A stretch of DNA of 64,000 bases, from assembly GCA_039932315.1 (NCBI GenBank), contig JBDTQG010000006.1, forward strand, positions 10,160 through 74,159, written 5' to 3'. Numbering within the stretch: the first letter of the stretch is position 1; each line of letters opens with the position of its first letter. The DNA is from Thermoanaerobaculia bacterium (GTDB lineage Bacteria > Acidobacteriota > Thermoanaerobaculia > Multivoradales > JAGPDF01). The notes under the pieces are model-generated. The model was not told where the DNA came from. It worked only from the letters and a program-made list of their open reading frames with translations, and did no database searches. Shown here piece by piece: positions 21,246 to 31,312 of this stretch. The position numbers were made by a program, and so were the translations under genes.

Positions 21246-21581
21246 CTAGTCGCCGACGAGAGTGGCGAGTTTGGCGAGCAGATCGGCGAGCACTTTGGCC
21301 GGGAGCTTACCGGCGAGCTCCGCCTTACGGGCGCGCCAGTCCAGGCTCTTGATCTGGTCGGCGAGCGCGACGCCTGCGACCGTCAAGCCGGCCGGCAGCG
21401 CGACTTCGAAAGGGTAGCCCTTGACCTGACTGGTGACCGGGCAAAGGAGCGCCAGGCCGACTCGGGCGTTGTAGGCACGCGGCGAGATGACGACCGCCGG
21501 GCGCCGCCCAGCCTGCTCATGGCCGGCCTGGGGGTCGAAGGAGATCCAGACGATGTCACCGCGATCCGGCGAGTAAGGCAC
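21246..21581 (-). CDS. mazF: Type II toxin MazF/PemK family endoribonuclease
   Basis: DRGDIVWISFDPQAGHEQAGRRPAVVISPRAYNARVGLALLCPVTSQVKGYPFEV...VALADQIKSLDWRARKA is collinear with E. coli MazF. Confidence 0.85.
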   Translation of the reverse strand: MPYSPDRGDIVWISFDPQAGHEQAGRRPAVVISPRAYNARVGLALLCPVTSQVKGYPFEVALPAGLTVAGVALADQIKSLDWRARKAELAGKLPAKVLADLLAKLATLVGD

Positions 21582-21830: not shown

Positions 21831-21939
21831 GCACGCCTCCGGTGTCTACATTGAATATACACCATTGGACCGAGAGACGACGGCCTCCTGCTTCGCCCGG
21901 GGTGGGCGCCGGAGAGAGACCGGCGGAACTGCGGAAAAG

Positions 21940-22564: not shown

Positions 22565-23407
22565 CTACCTTCGTCGAGTCGCAGCTAGCACGAGCCGTCT
22601 CATGGTCGCGAGGGTGCGGCACGAGCCATCGCGATGCATCATGCGGTGACAGTTCGAACAGACAATGGCCAGATCGCCAAGCAAGGTGCGTCGAGAAGCG
22701 GAACTGGCCGCGAGTGGAGCGACGTGATGCACCTCACAGTAGCCTTCGCCGAGGGCACCGTAGGCGCTCTCAAAGTCAAACTCGCAAACTTCACATCGGA
22801 GCGGCTCTCCATCCTTCGTTACTTGCTCGATCTTTCGTCGACGAAGGATGCGATCGCGCTCGCGCGCATAGTGGATCATGAGGCGCCGACGTCCCTCGCT
22901 CGCGCCGTCTGGAAGGTCGTCGACATCACTAGCGACAACTTCCCGTTTCGGGCCTCTGCGAAGCGATGGCCACAACGATCCCGTCGTCGGATTCCTCCCG
23001 ACGACGAGCTGAAAGAGTGCCTCGGCTTCCTCGATCGAGAGACGGAACAACGTACCCGCAGCGCCGGACTTGAGGAATACGGAACCTTTGAGGGCGACGT
23101 GCTTTCTTGCTGCTCCGATGTGAACCGGATGTTCCAGATAGGAAGTCAGATAGATGACGTGGAAGCGCGCGACAACGCCTCGCCTCACTGGTCTGGTTGG
23201 AACCGAGACAATTTCGCCCAGTCCAACGACCTGGGTCTTGGGCGCTGCTTCCCAGAAAAAGACCCTATCGCCGGCTTTCCATCCACTGGGCGCAGCACGC
23301 GTCTGCCAGACATCCGCTGCCCCCGGAGCGAGCCAAGCCGCAAGGTCGTTCCTAGCCGGCCTGCCTTTCACCACCCAGTACCGACTTGTCACAGGTTCAC
23401 CGACCAT
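22565..23407 (-). CDS. EVE(PUA-like)-HNH fusion endonuclease (modification-dependent, type IV-like restriction enzyme architecture)
   Basis: The N-terminus SRYWVVKGRP...DRVFFWEAAPKTQVVGLGEIVS is an EVE/PUA-like modified-base reader fold. The C-terminal HNH motif is CEVCEFDF...YCEVHHVAPLA...CSNCHRMMH. Confidence 0.7.
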   Translation of the reverse strand: MVGEPVTSRYWVVKGRPARNDLAAWLAPGAADVWQTRAAPSGWKAGDRVFFWEAAPKTQVVGLGEIVSVPTRPVRRGVVARFHVIYLTSYLEHPVHIGAARKHVALKGSVFLKSGAAGTLFRLSIEEAEALFQLVVGRNPTTGSLWPSLRRGPKREVVASDVDDLPDGASEGRRRLMIHYARERDRILRRRKIEQVTKDGEPLRCEVCEFDFESAYGALGEGYCEVHHVAPLAASSASRRTLLGDLAIVCSNCHRMMHRDGSCRTLATMRRLVLAATRRR

Positions 23408-23905
23408 CTAGTCGCGAACAGCGTCTACGATGAGGTCCCATCTCGAACGAAACGGCTCCAGACTCCAGCCTGTACCCTCCCTTAGAGGGGGCAGGTGCAC
23501 CGCACGAAACTTGTTCTCCTTGCTCCTAGCCTGACCGTTCATGCCAGGAGTTGCTTCCCAGATCCTATGGTTCTCAGAAACTGCTTTCGAGAGTTCGAGC
23601 GAAGGAATCACGAAGAACTCGAAGGCCTTCGTGGATTCAGGCGCTGGAATTCCAGCAAGGACCCAGAAGAAGGACTTGCCGAAGTCCTTTTCCGCCTTCA
23701 GCCCGACGGCGCATGTCCCCCCACCTGGAATGAATGCTTTCACCTGGACGTGGACGAATCGAGTTGCAACAGAATTGCTTACGAGAATGTCCGTGTTCGG
23801 GCAGTTTCCCATCGTCACGACCGCGACCAACTCACGCCGACAGAGCTCTCCTGCAACAAAGAACTGGGCCGCGTCCGCTCGATACCCCTTGTCGCTACGC
23901 GTCAT
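23408..23905 (-). CDS. Hypothetical small protein with PD-(D/E)XK-like motif, co-operonic with the RM enzyme and EVE-HNH
   Basis: VVTMGNCPNTDILV...FVHVQVKA (hydrophobic strand-D ... hydrophobic-Q-x-K). Its start overlaps the RM gene stop by 11 nt and its stop abuts the EVE-HNH start. Confidence 0.4.
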   Translation of the reverse strand: MTRSDKGYRADAAQFFVAGELCRRELVAVVTMGNCPNTDILVSNSVATRFVHVQVKAFIPGGGTCAVGLKAEKDFGKSFFWVLAGIPAPESTKAFEFFVIPSLELSKAVSENHRIWEATPGMNGQARSKENKFRAVHLPPLREGTGWSLEPFRSRWDLIVDAVRD

Positions 23906-26819
23906 CTCTGATTTGTCCCGCCCTCTCGAGATTCAGGGCTAGCAACCGCTCGAGGATCTGCTCGTCGGTGAGATCGCTCGGCCAGCCATACGCCGTGAAC
24001 ACCGCCTCGTCGAGTTTCTTGTGCGCGAGGTCGAGCCAGGCGGGGCGTTCGTTGTAGAGGTTGGTGAGTGTCCGCTTGGCGAGCTTCTTCGCCGCCTCGG
24101 CATCGCGCGCCACGATCCGCGGCCAGCGCACCGTTCCCATTCCTCGCGCGTCGGCCTCGTGCACGAATCTCTTCCAGGGCCCGTCCACCGAACCCGGAAA
24201 CTCCAACACCTCCTCCTTCGTCCACTCCGGCGGATTCAGCCAGGCTCGCCGCAGGTCGTCCAGCTGTTTCGCCGCAGCGGTGATGGCGCCCGCTACGTGG
24301 TTTGCTGGTAAAGGAAAAGGAAAAGTCTCGAAGCATGTAGTGGGTGTATACCGAAATCCGCTTTCCTTCTCTCGTAACTGCGTCCCCTGCGCCAACGCCC
24401 AAACTTCATGGAGTCTCGAGTGTAGGACCCCGAATTCATAGTCCTCCGAGAATGCGAAAGCGACGATGGCATCGGTGGCCAGATTCTCCGGCGTGGACCA
24501 GACGAAAAGACGATGCTTAGAGACGCGCGGGGTTACGATGAAGCGATCACGACTTCGAAGAGCGGCCCTCATTGCCTTCTGCGGGTCACCTAGAATCCAC
24601 CATCTTGACGCCCTTGTCGCCCTTCGATTTTTCTCGCGAACTGGCTTCACAACTCGCTCCAGAAATGCGAAGGAAGCTCCATACAGGGCAGCTTCTGAAA
24701 CGCCCACCTCTGGCGGCATGTCGATTATCCAAAGCGTTCCTGGTCGCCGGGTGAGGGAGAGACCATTGAGCCACGGTCTCACGACATCCGAAGTTGGGCG
24801 CCCATGAGGGTTGGGCGTGTGCAGCTCCGCGACGGCCTCTTCCTCATTCAAATCAAAGGGCCCGTGAATCGCCGCTCCAATGAAGGAAAGGGTTGAACTC
24901 GGTACTAGCGTCAGCGCTGTCGAAGTAGCAGCTCCTGCGGAGAGATTCGCGTTGATCCGAACAACTGCCTTCCCATCAACAGTCTTGTCCTTATACGAAC
25001 CATCGTCGAAGCCCACCATGGCAACATGAACGTTAGCGCCATCAAGAATCCACTCTCGGTCGCTCCAGGCCCAGAAGATGTCGCCGGAAGCCATGATGCG
25101 CTCGAGAACGGCGCGATTGGCCCCTCCCCGAATTCCTTGGGTGGCGAGAAGGCCGGCACGCTGTGCCTGGTTTTCTTCTATTGAGCTTCGGGCTTTCTCG
25201 AACCAGTAGCAGCAAAGATCAGATTGACCAGGAATACGCCCGCCGTAGAGCTTCCGAACGGCTTCGACGTACTCATCTCCGAGCTCGCCGCGCATCATCT
25301 TGTCGCCGAGAAACGGCGGATTGCCGACGATGAAGTCGACTTTGGGCCAGGTGGGTTCTTGGGGGTTCTCGGGGTCGGTGAGGTCGAGGATGGCGTCTTT
25401 GTTTTCGATGTTGCTCATCGCCTGGAGGATCGGTTCTTTCCAGGTGGTGGTGCCGTGCTGGCGGAGCCACTGGAGGTAGCCGATCCAGACGGTCATCTGG
25501 GCGAGCTCGTGGGCGTACTGGTTGATCTCGATGCCGTAGAGCTGCCAAGGACCGACGCCGACGCGGAGAGGGGCCTGGAAACCGCGATCGAGCATGAAGT
25601 CGTAGACCTCGCTCTCGAGATCTTTCAACTTGCGCAGCGTCACGTAGAGGAAGTTCCCCGATCCGCAAGCTGGGTCGAGGACCTTGATCTTCTCCAGACG
25701 ATCCAGGAAACGCAGCGCGAAGAGTTCGGCCTCGGCCTTTGCCTTCCTGTGCTCGTTCGCCGAGAGCGGTTTCCCTGGTGCCGCAGCGTCATCCTTCCGT
25801 CCCGTTGCGAGCAATCGATCGACGAGCGCGCCAGTTTCCGCCCACTCCCGGCGGAGCGGCGCCATGACGACCGGCTCGACCAGCGTCTCGATGTCCTCCC
25901 GGCTGGTGTAGTGCGCCCCCAGCTGTGCGCGCTTCGCCGGATCCAGGCCGCGTTCGAAGAGCGTGCCGAAGATCGACGGATCGATCGCGCTCCAGTCGAG
26001 CCGTGCGGCCGAGGCGAGAAGTGCCAACTCCTCTTCCGAAAGCGCCAGCGCGGAGGCGTCGTCGAAGAGACTGCCGTTGATGTGCGGAATCCGGTCGACA
26101 CCGAAGAAACCGCCGTCGGCCATCTTGCGGAAGAGATCGCCGACCAGTGTTTCGAAGAGCTCCGGCTTACCGCGCGTCGCTTCGAACAGCTTGGAGGCGA
26201 CCTCATTCGGCAGCAGGCCGATATCTTCGGCAAAGAGCGCGAACAGAATCCGGTCGAGGAAGCGCGCGACGGCGCGCGGCTCGAAGCCGCGGTTGCGCAG
26301 GCGGAGGGCCAGCTCACCGAGCGCCTTGGCGGCATCGGCCGTGACGACCGGATTGATCTTCCCCGGCCGGAAGCGCTCGGGCTCGAAGAAGACCCAACGC
26401 AAAAGCTCGAGCTTCTCGGGCTGGACGAGCTCTTCGAGCGCGATCGGGTAGACGACGTGCTTGGCGTTCTGGAAGCTGGTGTGGATCTCGAGCCGGGCCG
26501 TGTCGCAGGTCACCAGCAGAGGCGGGTTCTCGAGGTCCGCCCGGTATTCGTCGAGCTGCTTCCAGGCCGCGTCGAGGTCCTTGTGCTTGCCCTTGTATTC
26601 GAGAGCGAAGAAGCCGCGCTTCCAGACATCGGCGAAACCGTCGCTGCCGCCGCGCTTCTCAGCGCCCTTCTCGAAGCAAAACGATTCGCCGGTCGGATCG
26701 AGCGCCGCGGGCTTGCCGTGCCCGACCAGCTCGCAGAGGTCGAGAAAATGCTCCTGCGCCGCCGAGCGCTCCTTGAGCGTCGCGGCCTTCCACTTGCGGA
26801 CGAAGTCGCGGGGGGTCAT
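23895..26819 (-). CDS. Single-chain type IIL/IIG restriction-modification enzyme (MmeI-family-like: N-terminal PD-(D/E)XK nuclease, N6-adenine methyltransferase, TRD)
   Basis: The N-terminal nuclease motif is FADVWKRGFFALEYKGKHKDL (D-x9-E-x-K). The SAM-MTase motifs are VLDPACGSGNFL (motif I) and IVGNPPFLG (motif IV, NPPF). A ~400-aa C-terminal region is a candidate target-recognition domain. Length 974 aa. Confidence 0.8.
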   Translation of the reverse strand: MTPRDFVRKWKAATLKERSAAQEHFLDLCELVGHGKPAALDPTGESFCFEKGAEKRGGSDGFADVWKRGFFALEYKGKHKDLDAAWKQLDEYRADLENPPLLVTCDTARLEIHTSFQNAKHVVYPIALEELVQPEKLELLRWVFFEPERFRPGKINPVVTADAAKALGELALRLRNRGFEPRAVARFLDRILFALFAEDIGLLPNEVASKLFEATRGKPELFETLVGDLFRKMADGGFFGVDRIPHINGSLFDDASALALSEEELALLASAARLDWSAIDPSIFGTLFERGLDPAKRAQLGAHYTSREDIETLVEPVVMAPLRREWAETGALVDRLLATGRKDDAAAPGKPLSANEHRKAKAEAELFALRFLDRLEKIKVLDPACGSGNFLYVTLRKLKDLESEVYDFMLDRGFQAPLRVGVGPWQLYGIEINQYAHELAQMTVWIGYLQWLRQHGTTTWKEPILQAMSNIENKDAILDLTDPENPQEPTWPKVDFIVGNPPFLGDKMMRGELGDEYVEAVRKLYGGRIPGQSDLCCYWFEKARSSIEENQAQRAGLLATQGIRGGANRAVLERIMASGDIFWAWSDREWILDGANVHVAMVGFDDGSYKDKTVDGKAVVRINANLSAGAATSTALTLVPSSTLSFIGAAIHGPFDLNEEEAVAELHTPNPHGRPTSDVVRPWLNGLSLTRRPGTLWIIDMPPEVGVSEAALYGASFAFLERVVKPVREKNRRATRASRWWILGDPQKAMRAALRSRDRFIVTPRVSKHRLFVWSTPENLATDAIVAFAFSEDYEFGVLHSRLHEVWALAQGTQLREKESGFRYTPTTCFETFPFPLPANHVAGAITAAAKQLDDLRRAWLNPPEWTKEEVLEFPGSVDGPWKRFVHEADARGMGTVRWPRIVARDAEAAKKLAKRTLTNLYNERPAWLDLAHKKLDEAVFTAYGWPSDLTDEQILERLLALNLERAGQIRDDA

Positions 26820-26840
26820 GTGGCGCGAGCGCTGCCGACG

Positions 26841-27107
26841 TCAGCCGGCGCGTTTCACAGGACGGGAATGACTTCGCGCACCCGCGAGCAATCCGGCGAC
26901 GCTCAAGTCTTCAACGATCGCGGGCCAGTGCATGCCGTCGTCGTCGCCGAGCAGCTCCCAGTTCTGTCGCTCGTTCGCATCCGCAGCCAGGAGGCGAGGA
27001 AACCAGACCAGGGGCGCCGAGATTCGGCGGCCGTCGGCAAGCTCGACGGATATCTCGTTGTCCGAGATCTCAACGCCACGCGCCAGTGGGCGCCCATGTA
27101 CACGCAT
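26841..27107 (-). CDS. DUF2442-domain protein (copy A)
   Basis: MRVHGRPLARGVEISDNEISVELADGRRISAPLVWFPRLLAADANERQNWELLGDDDGMHWPAIVEDLSVAGLL. 79% identical to copy B at 29703..29978. Confidence 0.6.
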   Translation of the reverse strand: MRVHGRPLARGVEISDNEISVELADGRRISAPLVWFPRLLAADANERQNWELLGDDDGMHWPAIVEDLSVAGLLAGARSHSRPVKRAG

Positions 27108-27113
27108 TCGTAC

Positions 27114-28427
27114 CTAAGGTTCGGTTGCCGACCATTCGAGGAAGTTGCCGGTTTCGAACGCTGACCAGAAGATGGTTGCACTTCGATCGTAGAATGTACC
27201 CGCGGGGTCAGCCCTGATCTCAACTCTAATTCGCGGAGAGCTGGATGGAGGCGCCATCGTATAGTGGAGTACAGCTCCTGGTTGCAAGAAGGACTCTACG
27301 ATCGCTGCCTTGCAAAAACCCACCGGCGGCGGTGCTGGACCGGACGGCACAAAGGCGAGCTCGACTTCCGCGTTGGCGCAGTCGAGCTCCAGGCTTAGGT
27401 GAACGCTGTAGTCGTCGGCGGTCGCGGCTATTCGATCCGCGCCGGTCATAGCAAATCGAATCATGTTGACATCTTCGGCCACAAGGCCCGAAAGTCGCGT
27501 TCCGGAACCAATCTTCGAGTACATAAGAGATTGCGTCCCGGGGTGCTGAAGCGAAGACGCGACGAATTCATTCGCGGAGGCCGCGTAGTTGCTGCCTGTC
27601 GGAAGTACAGTTAGAGATCGGGAAAAAGAAGCCTGTTGAATTGTGGTGCTATCGATCAGGACTGGATCGTTGTCAGAGCGTCGAAACCAAGAAACCGATT
27701 GCACCTGCATGGGTTGAATCGGGCAGTTTGGGCCAGGGCAAGGGGGGCAACATGGAGTGCACGCGGTAGAGCCCGAACCTTGAAGGGCTGCGAGTCGCGG
27801 CAATTCCAGTTCCTGGAATGCCGGAATGAACGGGCATGCGTTGTTGTGAATATCTGTGCGGTCGCCGGGTGCCGAGCCCTGCGAAACATTTGTAGCATTG
27901 ACAGATGCCGCAAGACTAGTCAGCTGACCGCAGCCGCTTGGCCCGTCAAGATCGCAGACGCCCGTTCTCCAGTACTTCGCGTCGTTGTAGAGACCTCCGT
28001 CCTCCGACACGTCAAGCTCAACAAGATTTGAATGCCCAAGGCCCATCGCGCAATGCCCGAGCTCGTGAAGTACCACCCATTGTAGGCTGGCTTTCCCGGA
28101 CGGAGCGGGTTCATTGGAGGTCCAACAATCGAAGCAGTTTCCGTACCTTGCCTTCAGTTCGTTCCAAGTTTCGACCGCCGACAAAAGTGGCAAGAGTAGC
28201 CCCTCGCTTCCAGCTTCGACACAAATGCCAATTTCAATCGCCCCACCAGCCTGGAGATAACCCACAGGATGCACGATTGCAAACGGCGGAACGTAGTTTG
28301 GATCGGTCGAGGGGAGTCGACGGGTGAAGCGGTCGATCTCGAAATAGGTGCCGGCAGAAAGATCCGAAGTCATGGCCGCAGCGAGCGCAACCCCTAGCAG
28401 CACCAGTCGAACTCGCGTCAGTTTCAC
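27114..28427 (-). CDS. Secreted metzincin-like zinc metalloprotease ending in the GFExG-x4-W tail
   Basis: Signal peptide MKLTRVRLVLLGVALAAAMT, then the zinc-binding motif VVLHELGHCAMGLGHS (HExxHxxGxxH) and a Cys/Pro-rich linker. The C-terminus is FWSAFETGNFLEWSATEP*. GC is lower than the genome background. Confidence 0.6.
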   Translation of the reverse strand: MKLTRVRLVLLGVALAAAMTSDLSAGTYFEIDRFTRRLPSTDPNYVPPFAIVHPVGYLQAGGAIEIGICVEAGSEGLLLPLLSAVETWNELKARYGNCFDCWTSNEPAPSGKASLQWVVLHELGHCAMGLGHSNLVELDVSEDGGLYNDAKYWRTGVCDLDGPSGCGQLTSLAASVNATNVSQGSAPGDRTDIHNNACPFIPAFQELELPRLAALQGSGSTACTPCCPPCPGPNCPIQPMQVQSVSWFRRSDNDPVLIDSTTIQQASFSRSLTVLPTGSNYAASANEFVASSLQHPGTQSLMYSKIGSGTRLSGLVAEDVNMIRFAMTGADRIAATADDYSVHLSLELDCANAEVELAFVPSGPAPPPVGFCKAAIVESFLQPGAVLHYTMAPPSSSPRIRVEIRADPAGTFYDRSATIFWSAFETGNFLEWSATEP

Positions 28428-29041
28428 GTACCCTCCTCAGCCGATCGGAGCCGCATCAACCAGCCCTTCAGCTTCTCTCCAAACCTGGCGATCCCTTCGA
28501 GGGCGCGTATATCGGGACGCTTCGTCCGGTAGCTGCTGAAGGGCTCGAGTGCGAAGGAAACGGTAGGCGACGCGACTCGCACTCCGCGTACCTCGACGGA
28601 CTTAAAGTTAACCGTCACGACGCACCCCGTCCCCGGCTCAGAAACGCCCGCATGAAATCTTCGACCGTCCGGAAGCACGCCATAGCTGGGCTCGAGCTCC
28701 TGATGTATAGCGGAAAGGTCTGCCCCTACGACTTCGTAGTCGACCAAGTCTGCCAGCGCCTCCCGCAGCTCCTTGCGATTTATCATAATTCCAGGGGATG
28801 ACGCGGCTCGCTGTCCCCCGGAACGAGTAGTGCGCCTCTGCAACCAGCCATCGCCAAAGAGCTCGAACTGCTCGAGGCCCGGGGCGAAAATGTCCTTAAT
28901 CTGAATCGTCACTACGACAACGTCAGGGTTCGTTGAAGCAGAGAAGTCTCTTGCAGGGGGTTCGGAAGCGCTCTGAGCCCCTAGAGTCAGGCCAAGAATC
29001 CCCACACAGCACATTGCAATTGCGAGTGGTGTCTGTTTCAT
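28424..29041 (-). CDS. Hypothetical secreted protein (island gene)
   Basis: Signal peptide MKQTPLAIAMCCVGILGLTLGAQSA, no recognisable domain, lower GC. Confidence 0.4.
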   Translation of the reverse strand: MKQTPLAIAMCCVGILGLTLGAQSASEPPARDFSASTNPDVVVVTIQIKDIFAPGLEQFELFGDGWLQRRTTRSGGQRAASSPGIMINRKELREALADLVDYEVVGADLSAIHQELEPSYGVLPDGRRFHAGVSEPGTGCVVTVNFKSVEVRGVRVASPTVSFALEPFSSYRTKRPDIRALEGIARFGEKLKGWLMRLRSAEEGT

Positions 29042-30262: not shown

Positions 30263-31312
30263 ATGCCCTCACCGCCCTCCGACCGTGTTCTCTCGGGTGA
30301 GCTCGAGATGGCGGAGGCTTCGGTCGAGCACTCGCTCCGACCGAAGCAGCTGACGGAGTACGTCGGGCAGGACCGGATCGTCGAGAATCTGAAGGTCTTC
30401 ATCCGCGCCGCGCGGGAGCGCGGGGAGCCGCTCGATCACGTGCTGCTCTTCGGCCCGCCGGGGCTGGGGAAGACGACTCTCGCGCACATCCTGGCGAAGG
30501 AGATGGACGCGCCGCTCCGCACGACCGCCGGGCCGGTGCTCGAGCGCGCGGGCGACCTCGCGGCGATCCTCACCAATCTGCAGGAGGGCGACGTTCTCTT
30601 CGTCGACGAGATCCATCGTCTCGGGCCGTCCGTCGAGGAGATCCTCTATCCCGCGCTCGAAGACTTCAAGCTCGACCTCGTCGTCGGGCAGGGGCCGGCG
30701 GCGCGCATCGTCAAGATCGATCTGCCGCGTTTCACGCTCGTCGGCGCGACGACGCGCGCCGGGCTCATCTCGTCGCCGCTCCGTGCGCGATTTGGCATCG
30801 TCCATCGGCTCGACTTCTATCCCCCGGCGCAGCTCGCGCGGATCGTGAAGCGTTCGGCCGAGCTTCTCGGCGTGGCGTCGGATGCGGCAGGTCTCGATGA
30901 GCTCGCGCGCCGGAGCCGCGGCACCCCGCGCATCGCGAACCGGCTGCTTCGCCGGGTGCGCGACTTCGCGCAGGTCGACGCCCATCTGCCGGGGATCGAT
31001 CTCGCGATGGCGAAAAAGGCGCTGGCGCTCCTCGAGGTCGACGACTTCGGCTTCGACGAGCTCGACCGGCGATTCCTCTCCGTGCTGATCGAAGTCTACG
31101 GCGGCGGCCCGGCCGGAATCCAGGCGATCGCCGCCGCGATCGGCGAAGACCGCGGCACGCTCGAGGATCTCTACGAGCCGTACCTCCTGCAGGAGGGCTT
31201 CCTGCAGCGCACGCCGCGCGGACGGGTCGCCACCCGGCGCGCCTACGACCATCTCGGCTACCCCCCACCCGCCTCGACGCCGGGCAGCGGCACGCTGTTC
31301 GATCCCTCCTAG
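30263..31312 (+). CDS. ruvB: Holliday junction branch-migration ATPase RuvB
   Basis: [23 protein letters not shown]...[18 protein letters not shown] (Walker A)...LFVDEIHRL (Walker B)...[16 protein letters not shown], then a winged-helix C-terminus. Confidence 0.95.

Follow-up and report, generated by a model that had tools for sequence, protein, structure and literature searches.

Three nuclease genes packed together near ruvB in a Thermoanaerobaculia bacterium: probably neighbours in a variable islet and not parts of one system

Do three nuclease genes that overlap or abut on one strand make up a single defence system, or do they simply share a site? This question is raised by a 64,000-nucleotide stretch of contig JBDTQG010000006.1 from an uncultured soil Thermoanaerobaculia bacterium (hereafter the window), in which a gene for a type IIL restriction-modification (RM) enzyme, a gene for a protein of 165 amino acids (aa; the middle gene) and a gene for an EVE-HNH endonuclease follow one another. 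A preliminary description of this DNA had treated the three as a coupled unit. Comparison does not support that view, in that no conserved partner of the middle gene appeared at 80 loci, and relatives of the islet keep the RM gene, some of them EVE-HNH as well, without it. We consider it probable that the trio consists of three autonomous nucleases lying side by side in a hypervariable defence and toxin-antitoxin islet near ruvB, and that the three genes are probably transcribed together.

The three open reading frames (ORFs) are intact on the minus strand, as confirmed by an ORF scan, their translations and the raw sequence. The genes and the two junctions between them, the latter read from the raw sequence, are located in the window as follows.

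23895 to 26819, minus strand: gene 1, MmeI-family type IIL (IIG) RM enzyme, 974 aa, apparently complete
23408 to 23905, minus strand: gene 2 (the middle gene), predicted stand-alone nuclease of PD-(D/E)XK fold from an unnamed, dispersed family, 165 aa
22565 to 23407, minus strand: gene 3, EVE-HNH modification-dependent, type IV-like endonuclease, 280 aa
23895 to 23905, minus strand: overlap of 11 nt between the RM stop and the start of the 165-aa gene, ATGACGCGTAG
23405 to 23410, minus strand: TAGATG, stop/start abutment of the 165-aa gene and the EVE-HNH gene

The RM stop codon TAG occupies 23897-23895 and the ATG of the middle gene lies at 23905, and the 11-nt overlap given in the preliminary description is therefore correct. 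A gap of 1 nt had been reported at the second junction; the stop codon of the middle gene (TAG, 23410-23408) in fact directly abuts the ATG at 23407, with 0 nt between them. EVE-HNH homologues start 2-4 residues ahead of a conserved YWVVKG sequence, and the closest EVE-HNH relative has a GTG start 15 nt downstream of its middle gene. Judged from these alignments, the true start of gene 3 may be the GTG at 23392, which would leave a gap of 15 nt; the spacing is tight whichever start is used. Each protein has many full-length homologues (866 for the 165-aa protein at E<=0.01, 174 for EVE-HNH at E<=0.001 and at least 7999 for RM at E<=1e-50), with which the N- and C-termini of all three agree; these are therefore real genes and not chance ORFs of a genome of 66% GC. 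Identical copies of the trio proteins are on record from a Thermoanaerobaculia metagenome-assembled genome (MAG). The tight packing makes co-transcription likely, as had been proposed from the outset. A scan found no terminator-like sites between the three genes, terminators in that scan occurring at chance level, and a sigma-70 promoter scan returned 0 promoters in the whole 10 kb, so that it does not discriminate at the trio.

Does the middle gene keep the same company elsewhere? We surveyed one genome per species (185,579 genomes), obtained 159 pattern-confirmed relatives and analysed the best 80 loci, which represent nearly every bacterial phylum and one archaeon, with identities of 50-65% between phyla. 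The co-occurrence with MmeI-like or EVE-HNH genes that a coupled unit would predict is essentially absent. When the RM and EVE-HNH proteins of the window were used in tblastn searches, an MmeI-like gene was found near the middle gene at one of the 80 loci (L030, where an FRG-domain gene stands in between) and an HNH gene likewise at one of 80 (L013). All-against-all clustering of the neighbours at the 80 loci gave no recurrent partner of the middle gene, and 130 immediate neighbours matched 136 different Pfam families, from Mrr and toxin-antitoxin through aldehyde dehydrogenase and GatB. A 71%-identical homologue is a lone gene with ilvD on one side and a protease gene on the other, and another homologue lies on a Burkholderia conjugative plasmid, adjoining parAB. 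The GC content of the gene is lower than that of its locus at 66 of the 80 loci. Flanking DNA of the 80 loci shares no k-mers except among closely related Pelagibacter loci, attC sites not having been modelled. The family is nearly missing from mobile DNA collections, with no member in 50,697 phage records, one in 2.9 million IMG/VR contigs and two in 72,556 plasmids.

RM genes of several kinds do occur beside the family. Type I HsdM and an HNH gene accompany it in L013, and a type IIL RM gene in L030 and in the window; within 8 kb on either side, a small panel of RM probes detected a DNA methyltransferase at 6 of the 80 loci, and no such gene is a constant immediate neighbour. Genes of the Mrr, type IV, PDC-candidate and toxin-antitoxin kinds also occur nearby. 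We had considered the 165-aa protein as a type II endonuclease with a cognate methyltransferase, and rejected this candidate for lack of a regular methyltransferase linkage (6/80 loci).

Several individual contexts were recorded in the same survey. A complete type III Mod-Res pair lies directly upstream of the family gene in two unrelated lineages (L095, 414-5513; L024, 2713-8483), and at L095 the family gene is followed by a serine recombinase gene and an HTH_17 excisionase-like gene. An FRG-domain protein of about 255 aa is encoded upstream of the family gene in two distant genomes, an Akkermansia MAG (L030, 7180-7938) and a Nitrospira MAG (L002, 6590-7369), and is the sole weakly recurrent neighbour apart from three that are specific to Pelagibacter. 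The 62%-identical homologue of L098 (5001-5501; also in L099) is a lone insertion between accD and folC, within the conserved cluster trpF-trpB-trpA-accD-folC-dedD-cvpA-purF, in which trpB and trpA are likewise separated by an inserted HicB-like antitoxin gene. At L084-L086, a 63%-identical homologue is one of a series of short ORFs, mostly unannotated and running in the same direction, among which are ParE and BrnT/CopG modules; the series resembles a chromosomal integron cassette array.

What, then, occupies this site in closer relatives of the islet? L091 has, in order, ruvB (93% aa identity), DUF4160, DUF2442 and an RM gene (79%). A Gp49/HTH toxin-antitoxin pair comes next, and further genes extend to the same DinB_2-like flank; the 165-aa gene and EVE-HNH are both absent. 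At L088 the RM gene is followed by antitoxin/ParE, a 182-aa gene and EVE-HNH, and at L089 by a 210-aa and a 100-aa gene, an RM 3′ fragment, an antitoxin gene and EVE-HNH. The EVE-HNH proteins closest to that of the window (77% identity, L088 and L089) are encoded at loci without the middle gene. L092 and L093 (RM 73-74%) have neither the middle gene nor EVE-HNH, and RM relatives at 73-80% identity altogether occur without the middle gene. At the DNA level the RM gene ceases to align with L088 and L089 at window position 23918, 13 nt before the ATG of the middle gene, and the RM proteins agree through ...LNLERA, after which comes a variable tail, of 3-15 aa in the relatives. The end of homology at 23918 and the variable RM tails indicate that the RM 3′ end is exactly where the variable region begins, and from these alignments the 165-aa gene appears to be one of several alternative occupants of a slot behind the RM gene.

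The arrangement of the window is not unique. On the P0002/P0123 contig we found the same 11-nt overlap of the RM and middle genes, with a gap of 15 nt between the middle and EVE-HNH genes, and at L100 the stop and start of the middle and EVE-HNH genes overlap by 2 nt (TTGA). The trio, or the middle/EVE-HNH pair, recurs in these two other short contigs only. Because the three contigs that contain the middle/EVE-HNH pair belong to one narrow clade, they count as one evolutionary event. None of 12 loci with more distant full-length EVE-HNH genes has the middle gene beside it, these contigs being short, and no general linkage of RM and EVE-HNH genes was seen among the more distant EVE-HNH genes, where the metagenome contigs are mostly too short to judge. 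Extra RM 3′-terminal fragments lie between the cargo genes of L088 (3846-3924 and 4575-4782) and L089 (4338-4569), and every one of them runs to the natural 3′ terminus of RM. The 182-aa gene is upstream of EVE-HNH in L088 and downstream of it in the window, which indicates that cargo has been shuffled.

How complete is each of the three enzymes? MmeI-type enzymes methylate one strand only and cut unmethylated DNA about 20 nt from an asymmetric site. The gene 1 protein matches the Pfam families MmeI_N (5e-14), MmeI_hel (5e-10), MmeI_Mtase (1e-31), MmeI_TRD (2e-8) and N6_Mtase (1e-6), with an MmeI_C match (9e-4, 19.9 bits) under the Pfam cut-off of 27, and it matches the PADLOC model REase_MTase_IIG at 8.6e-273. 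Its N-terminal PD-ExK nuclease motif is intact (D64-X9-E74-Y-K76), as are the motifs of a gamma-class N6-adenine methyltransferase (motif I, DPACGSGNF at 382; motif IV, NPPF at 500). The domains, the PADLOC match and the motifs agree with the type IIL assignment made in the preliminary description. Homologues are mostly 950-1000 aa long. No separate methyltransferase or specificity subunit was found beside the gene, in that no methyltransferase domain occurs in the flanking ORFs. In MmeI, the corresponding motif is D70...E80-x-K82, an N-terminal PD-ExK within a single polypeptide (PMC2731913), and Morgan et al. (2009) defined the active MmeI group by this N-terminal PD-ExK and described such enzymes as self-contained, flanked by no extra methyltransferase and no consistent genes (PMC2731913). 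Gene 1 has the same five-domain Pfam architecture as the MmeI family (PMC2731913; structure, PMC4833311), with D-X9-E-X-K, DPACGSGNF and NPPF, and likewise lacks a second methyltransferase alongside. It differs from MmeI itself in being distantly related in sequence, with MmeI_C below the cut-off, and the window locus differs from the family in containing a second, truncated 5′ copy of the RM gene. Considering the intact domains and motifs together with the autonomy of the family (PMC2731913), gene 1 is a self-contained type IIL enzyme, apparently complete and active. The public NCBI record gives the RM gene as a 742-aa ‘DNA methyltransferase’ (protein P0244), 76% of the ORF; unlike that annotation, the 974-aa ORF takes in the nuclease domain, has no interruption and is matched by full-length homologues.

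Gene 3 is an intact enzyme of the EVE-HNH, type IV-like kind, as had been proposed. Pfam detects HNH (4e-6) and, at the threshold, EVE (7e-5; 23.2 bits versus a cut-off of 23), PADLOC detects mREase_IV (1e-5), and the HNH region aligns by phmmer to E. coli McrA (6ghc, 4e-4). A mutated HNH motif would have argued for an inactive enzyme; the residues of the C-terminal beta-beta-alpha-metal motif, which comprise a Cys4 zinc site and a His/Asn/His catalytic set (C205, C208, H227, H228, C250, N252, C253, H254 and H258), are invariant in 25 homologues and present here, as are the EVE tryptophans W11, W34 and W52. The AlphaFold2 (AF2) model has a mean predicted local distance difference test score (pLDDT) of 84.6, and its top Foldseek match is VcaM4I (6yex), over the full length at E 1e-7, followed by the EVE structures 2eve, 2gbs, 2ar1 and 1zce (template-modelling score, TM, of 0.64-0.67 on the target). 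The characterised relatives TspA15I, VcaM4I and CmeDI prefer DNA with 5-hydroxymethylcytosine (5hmC) or 5-methylcytosine (5mC) (PMC6765204, PMC7897488), and some of them nick as well as cut (PMC6765204). Gene 3 shares with this group the N-terminal EVE fold, a helical linker, the C-terminal HNH domain and the CxxC...CxxC zinc site. However, phmmer finds no sequence similarity to VcaM4I, and only the HNH domain of McrA aligns. According to Lutz et al., genes of the EVE-HNH type are usually not close to methyltransferase genes; gene 3 departs from this pattern, lying 0.5 kb from an RM gene of the N6-methyladenine (m6A) type.

The middle gene is the least familiar of the three. Its protein has no Pfam or PADLOC match at E<=1, no NCBIfam match and no useful PHROG match, and searches of the PDB by sequence returned nothing with either profile. 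A structure prediction had been suggested as a check, and it returned a nuclease-like fold; conserved homologues of the protein exist as well. The AF2 model, built with 36 homologues, has a pLDDT of 91.6 and an alpha-beta-beta-beta-alpha-beta core (helix 7-23; strands 27-30, 39-43, 50-58, 79-85 and 96-101; helix 102-118). Its best Foldseek match is the homing endonuclease I-Ssp6803I (2ost; E 2.9e-3, probability 1.0, TM 0.53/0.61), with weaker matches to EcoRV, the SPARDA nuclease, HinP1I and PaqCI; matches in a viral library are weak, to PD-(D/E)XK proteins and Holliday junction resolvases. A 90%-identity collection contains the 866 homologues at 55-76% identity. In the core family E20, Q54, V55 and K56 are invariant and D39 nearly so. 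Helix 1 carries E20, strand 2 opens with D39 and strand 3 holds Q54-V55-K56, with Q in place of the customary D/E. When 1.84 billion representatives were scanned in full with HMMER, the result was a wider superfamily of 1781 clusters of proteins of about 150 aa, across which the same five residues are nearly invariant. PF11645 (PDDEXK_5), the Pfam family of I-Ssp6803I (PMC3424549), is matched by 10 of 40 distant relatives (best 5e-7); the window protein itself has no match to it at E<=1 and is not a member by the Pfam criterion. The model and these relatives bear out the earlier reading of the ORF as PD-(D/E)XK-like, including the DILV...VHVQVK string, which is present, and the protein is predicted to have a PD-(D/E)XK fold related to the PDDEXK_5 clade. 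From the fold and the E/D/QxK residues, metal-dependent DNA endonuclease is its most likely activity.

Compared with I-Ssp6803I and PDDEXK_5, the 165-aa protein has the same small single-domain fold, with the helix-1 Glu, the strand-2 Asp and the x-K on strand 3. It differs in having Q in the (D/E)xK position and in being extended at the C-terminus by a conserved segment of about 50 aa (W116, TPGxxGQ, R134, W147, W156); moreover, its gene is not intron-encoded and its family is not limited to cyanobacteria. The middle gene is thus an unnamed branch of a known superfamily, and the RM and EVE-HNH genes are of known kinds. The distant relatives P0490, P0498 and P0508 (A3 alignment) carry an extra C-terminal extension of about 130 aa, and DUF6508 is matched by two A3 members (best 1e-14), which suggests fusion variants of the nuclease.

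How would three autonomous nucleases act side by side? The MmeI-like enzyme unites in one polypeptide a PD-ExK nuclease, a gamma-class N6-adenine methyltransferase and a target recognition domain (TRD). Free of partners, it would place methyl groups on a single strand of its site and cleave DNA without methylation some distance away. The 165-aa protein is a candidate single-domain PD-(D/E)XK endonuclease, distantly related to I-Ssp6803I/PDDEXK_5, in which E20, D39 and Q54-x-K56 would be the metal-binding and catalytic residues; it would probably act as a homo-oligomer on DNA, and appears to come from a horizontally spread stand-alone gene family. The EVE domain of gene 3 would bind a flipped modified base, which in characterised relatives is of the 5mC/5hmC type; cleavage would fall to the HNH domain, and the activity should be compatible with m6A-type methylation of the host DNA. 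The layered defence put forward in the preliminary description stands in the generic sense that is true of any defence island, and in that sense only.

Could the 165-aa protein nevertheless belong to a dedicated multi-component system and have the RM enzyme, EVE-HNH or both as a physical partner, for example cutting the second strand for an EVE-HNH nickase? The overlap of 11 nt and the abutting stop and start codons point to translational coupling, the RM/middle overlap is found again in the P0002 contig and the middle/EVE-HNH junction both there and at L100, and nicking in addition to cutting is known for some characterised EVE-HNH relatives (PMC6765204). Yet both partners are missing at 78 of the 80 loci of the middle family and in the other contexts examined, the closest EVE-HNH relatives (77%, L088 and L089) and the RM relatives at 73-80% identity do without the middle gene, and it is missing from all 12 loci with more remote full-length EVE-HNH genes, on contigs that are short. 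The MmeI family is self-sufficient (PMC2731913), which together with the neighbourhood data also opposes the suggestion that the protein is an accessory, specificity or regulatory subunit. No RM/middle fusion occurs among the 1781 clusters, in which the longest listed match has 371 aa. We therefore regard a dedicated system as very unlikely. An RM/middle-gene fusion or frameshift product was rejected on the same deep search, which contains no long fusion proteins. It is also unlikely that the 165-aa gene is a selfish, free-standing gene of the homing-endonuclease kind that settled in the slot behind the RM gene with no benefit to the host. The best solved structure is the PD-(D/E)XK homing endonuclease I-Ssp6803I, distant relatives match PF11645, and single-gene insertions in housekeeping operons (accD|gene|folC, ilvD|gene), the identity of 50-65% between phyla, a GC content below that of the locus in 66 of 80 cases and a serine recombinase alongside in one context are all what such a gene might show. 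Against this, the gene lies in neither an intron nor an intein, and Rfam gave no match. A conserved protein should imply a conserved adjacent target, whereas the insertion sites are unrelated and the flanks of the 80 loci contain no conserved k-mers. Free-standing homing endonucleases abound in phages, and this family is virtually absent from phage collections and rare on plasmids; it recurs, moreover, beside RM and type IV genes. A non-defence role as an accessory nuclease of DNA repair or recombination, such as an Hjc-like resolvase or another structure-specific nuclease, seems to us highly improbable. I-Ssp6803I is structurally close to archaeal Hjc (PMC3384342), the weak viral-library matches include Holliday junction resolvases, and some copies sit among housekeeping genes, but the distribution is sporadic (159 pattern-confirmed relatives in 185,579 species genomes), the composition looks foreign and recombination genes are not linked to it; ruvB, 6 kb away, serves only as the islet anchor, and the gene is missing from this site in relatives.

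Most likely, then, the 165-aa gene encodes an independent defence nuclease, a selfish element being less likely. We lean toward autonomous defence because the family has RM neighbours of three types as well as Mrr, type IV, PDC-candidate and toxin-antitoxin neighbours, because it is nearly absent from phages, and because several validated PD-T4, PD-T7 and PD-lambda systems are listed with a PF11645 domain (PMC10952713). Several points weigh against this reading. How far defence genes are enriched around the middle family is an informal estimate, made from partial counts. The window protein matches no Pfam or PADLOC model and its Foldseek support is moderate (E 2.9e-3, TM about 0.55), and even among distant relatives there is no firm PADLOC match, comparison of these with PADLOC giving weak PDC-S01 matches only (best 4.5e-4). 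The tight middle/EVE-HNH junction in three contigs could, as a minority possibility, mean a two-gene module. A bolder version, which we entertain only tentatively, is that the family is an undescribed type of single-gene immune nuclease that moves from phylum to phylum and settles beside RM and type IV genes, and that in this clade it is perhaps translationally coupled to EVE-HNH as a two-nuclease module.

How might the variable slot have come about? The trio lies within a longer co-directional run on the minus strand, of low GC content at third codon positions (GC3), which lies between ruvB and DinB_2-like genes. From high to low coordinates it comprises DUF4160, DUF2442, an RM remnant of 188 codons, a 205-aa gene, a 437-aa gene, DUF2442, RM, the 165-aa gene, EVE-HNH, a 182-aa gene, MazE and MazF. 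The features outside the trio are as follows.

30263 to 31312, plus strand: ruvB, conserved core anchor gene; Pfam RuvB_N 1e-78, 93% aa identity to ruvB of L091
29121 to 29955, no strand: 835-bp direct repeat, copy 2 (self-blastn); copy 1 at 26278-27093, 79.6% identity
29066 to 29662, minus strand: truncated MmeI-like RM remnant, first 188 codons; tblastn 89% aa identity, PADLOC REase_MTase_IIG 5e-41
27114 to 29041, minus strand: 437-aa and 205-aa genes, overlapping by 4 nt, between the repeat copies; no PADLOC or PHROG match, weak Matrixin match (2e-3)
26841 to 27107, minus strand: DUF2442 copy 1 (Pfam 1e-15), 21 nt upstream of the RM gene; the order DUF4160-DUF2442-RM is also found in L091
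21940 to 22488, minus strand: 182-aa gene of the variable islet; no Pfam, PADLOC or PHROG match, 84%-identical copy in L088
21588 to 21830, minus strand: MazE, at the distal islet end; Pfam MazE_antitoxin 5e-11
21246 to 21581, minus strand: MazF/PemK, at the distal islet end; Pfam PemK_toxin 1e-28

The 835-bp repeat covers DUF2442 and the 5′ end of the RM gene (the first 188 codons). Composition in the islet is foreign (GC3 0.63-0.65 versus 0.88 for ruvB), the 437-aa and 205-aa genes having values of 0.59 and 0.64. The RM gene itself is a mosaic, with a GC3 of 0.90 over codons 1-188 that falls to 0.72 beyond them. The 835-bp repeat, this drop in GC3 and the RM 3′ remnants in relatives together point to repeated replacement of alleles and cargo by recombination anchored in the RM gene. 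Identity of the RM protein to its relatives is 93-97% at the N-terminus and 49-68% in the TRD region (about 24348-24890), and the mosaicism suggests that the TRD or whole alleles have been swapped. No tRNA, non-coding RNA or integrase was found at the islet borders, and short repeats at the cassette junctions of the window gave chance-level matches only. A palindromic AT-rich stretch lies upstream of mazE (about 21840-21870), and an 89-bp match to the BrnA antitoxin region of L088 (21097-21185) looks like a remnant.

With defence islands and hotspots beside core genes, the window shares low GC3, the presence of RM, type IV and toxin-antitoxin genes on one strand, and a content that varies between close relatives. 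It differs in that its border has neither an integrase nor a tRNA; turnover seems instead to use the resident RM gene as an anchor, leaving 5′ and 3′ remnants. Comparison reveals a variable slot at the RM 3′ end and not a module, and the finding is for the most part ordinary, its value being chiefly corrective: closely packed genes of a defence island ought not to be taken for one multi-subunit system unless comparison supports it. The locus illustrates how a resident MmeI-like gene can act as a recombination anchor for the swapping of defence and toxin-antitoxin cargo. What is mildly new is a highly conserved, phylum-hopping family of predicted nucleases of about 165 aa that has no Pfam, NCBIfam or PADLOC model, and which is an inexpensive candidate for single-gene defence screens.

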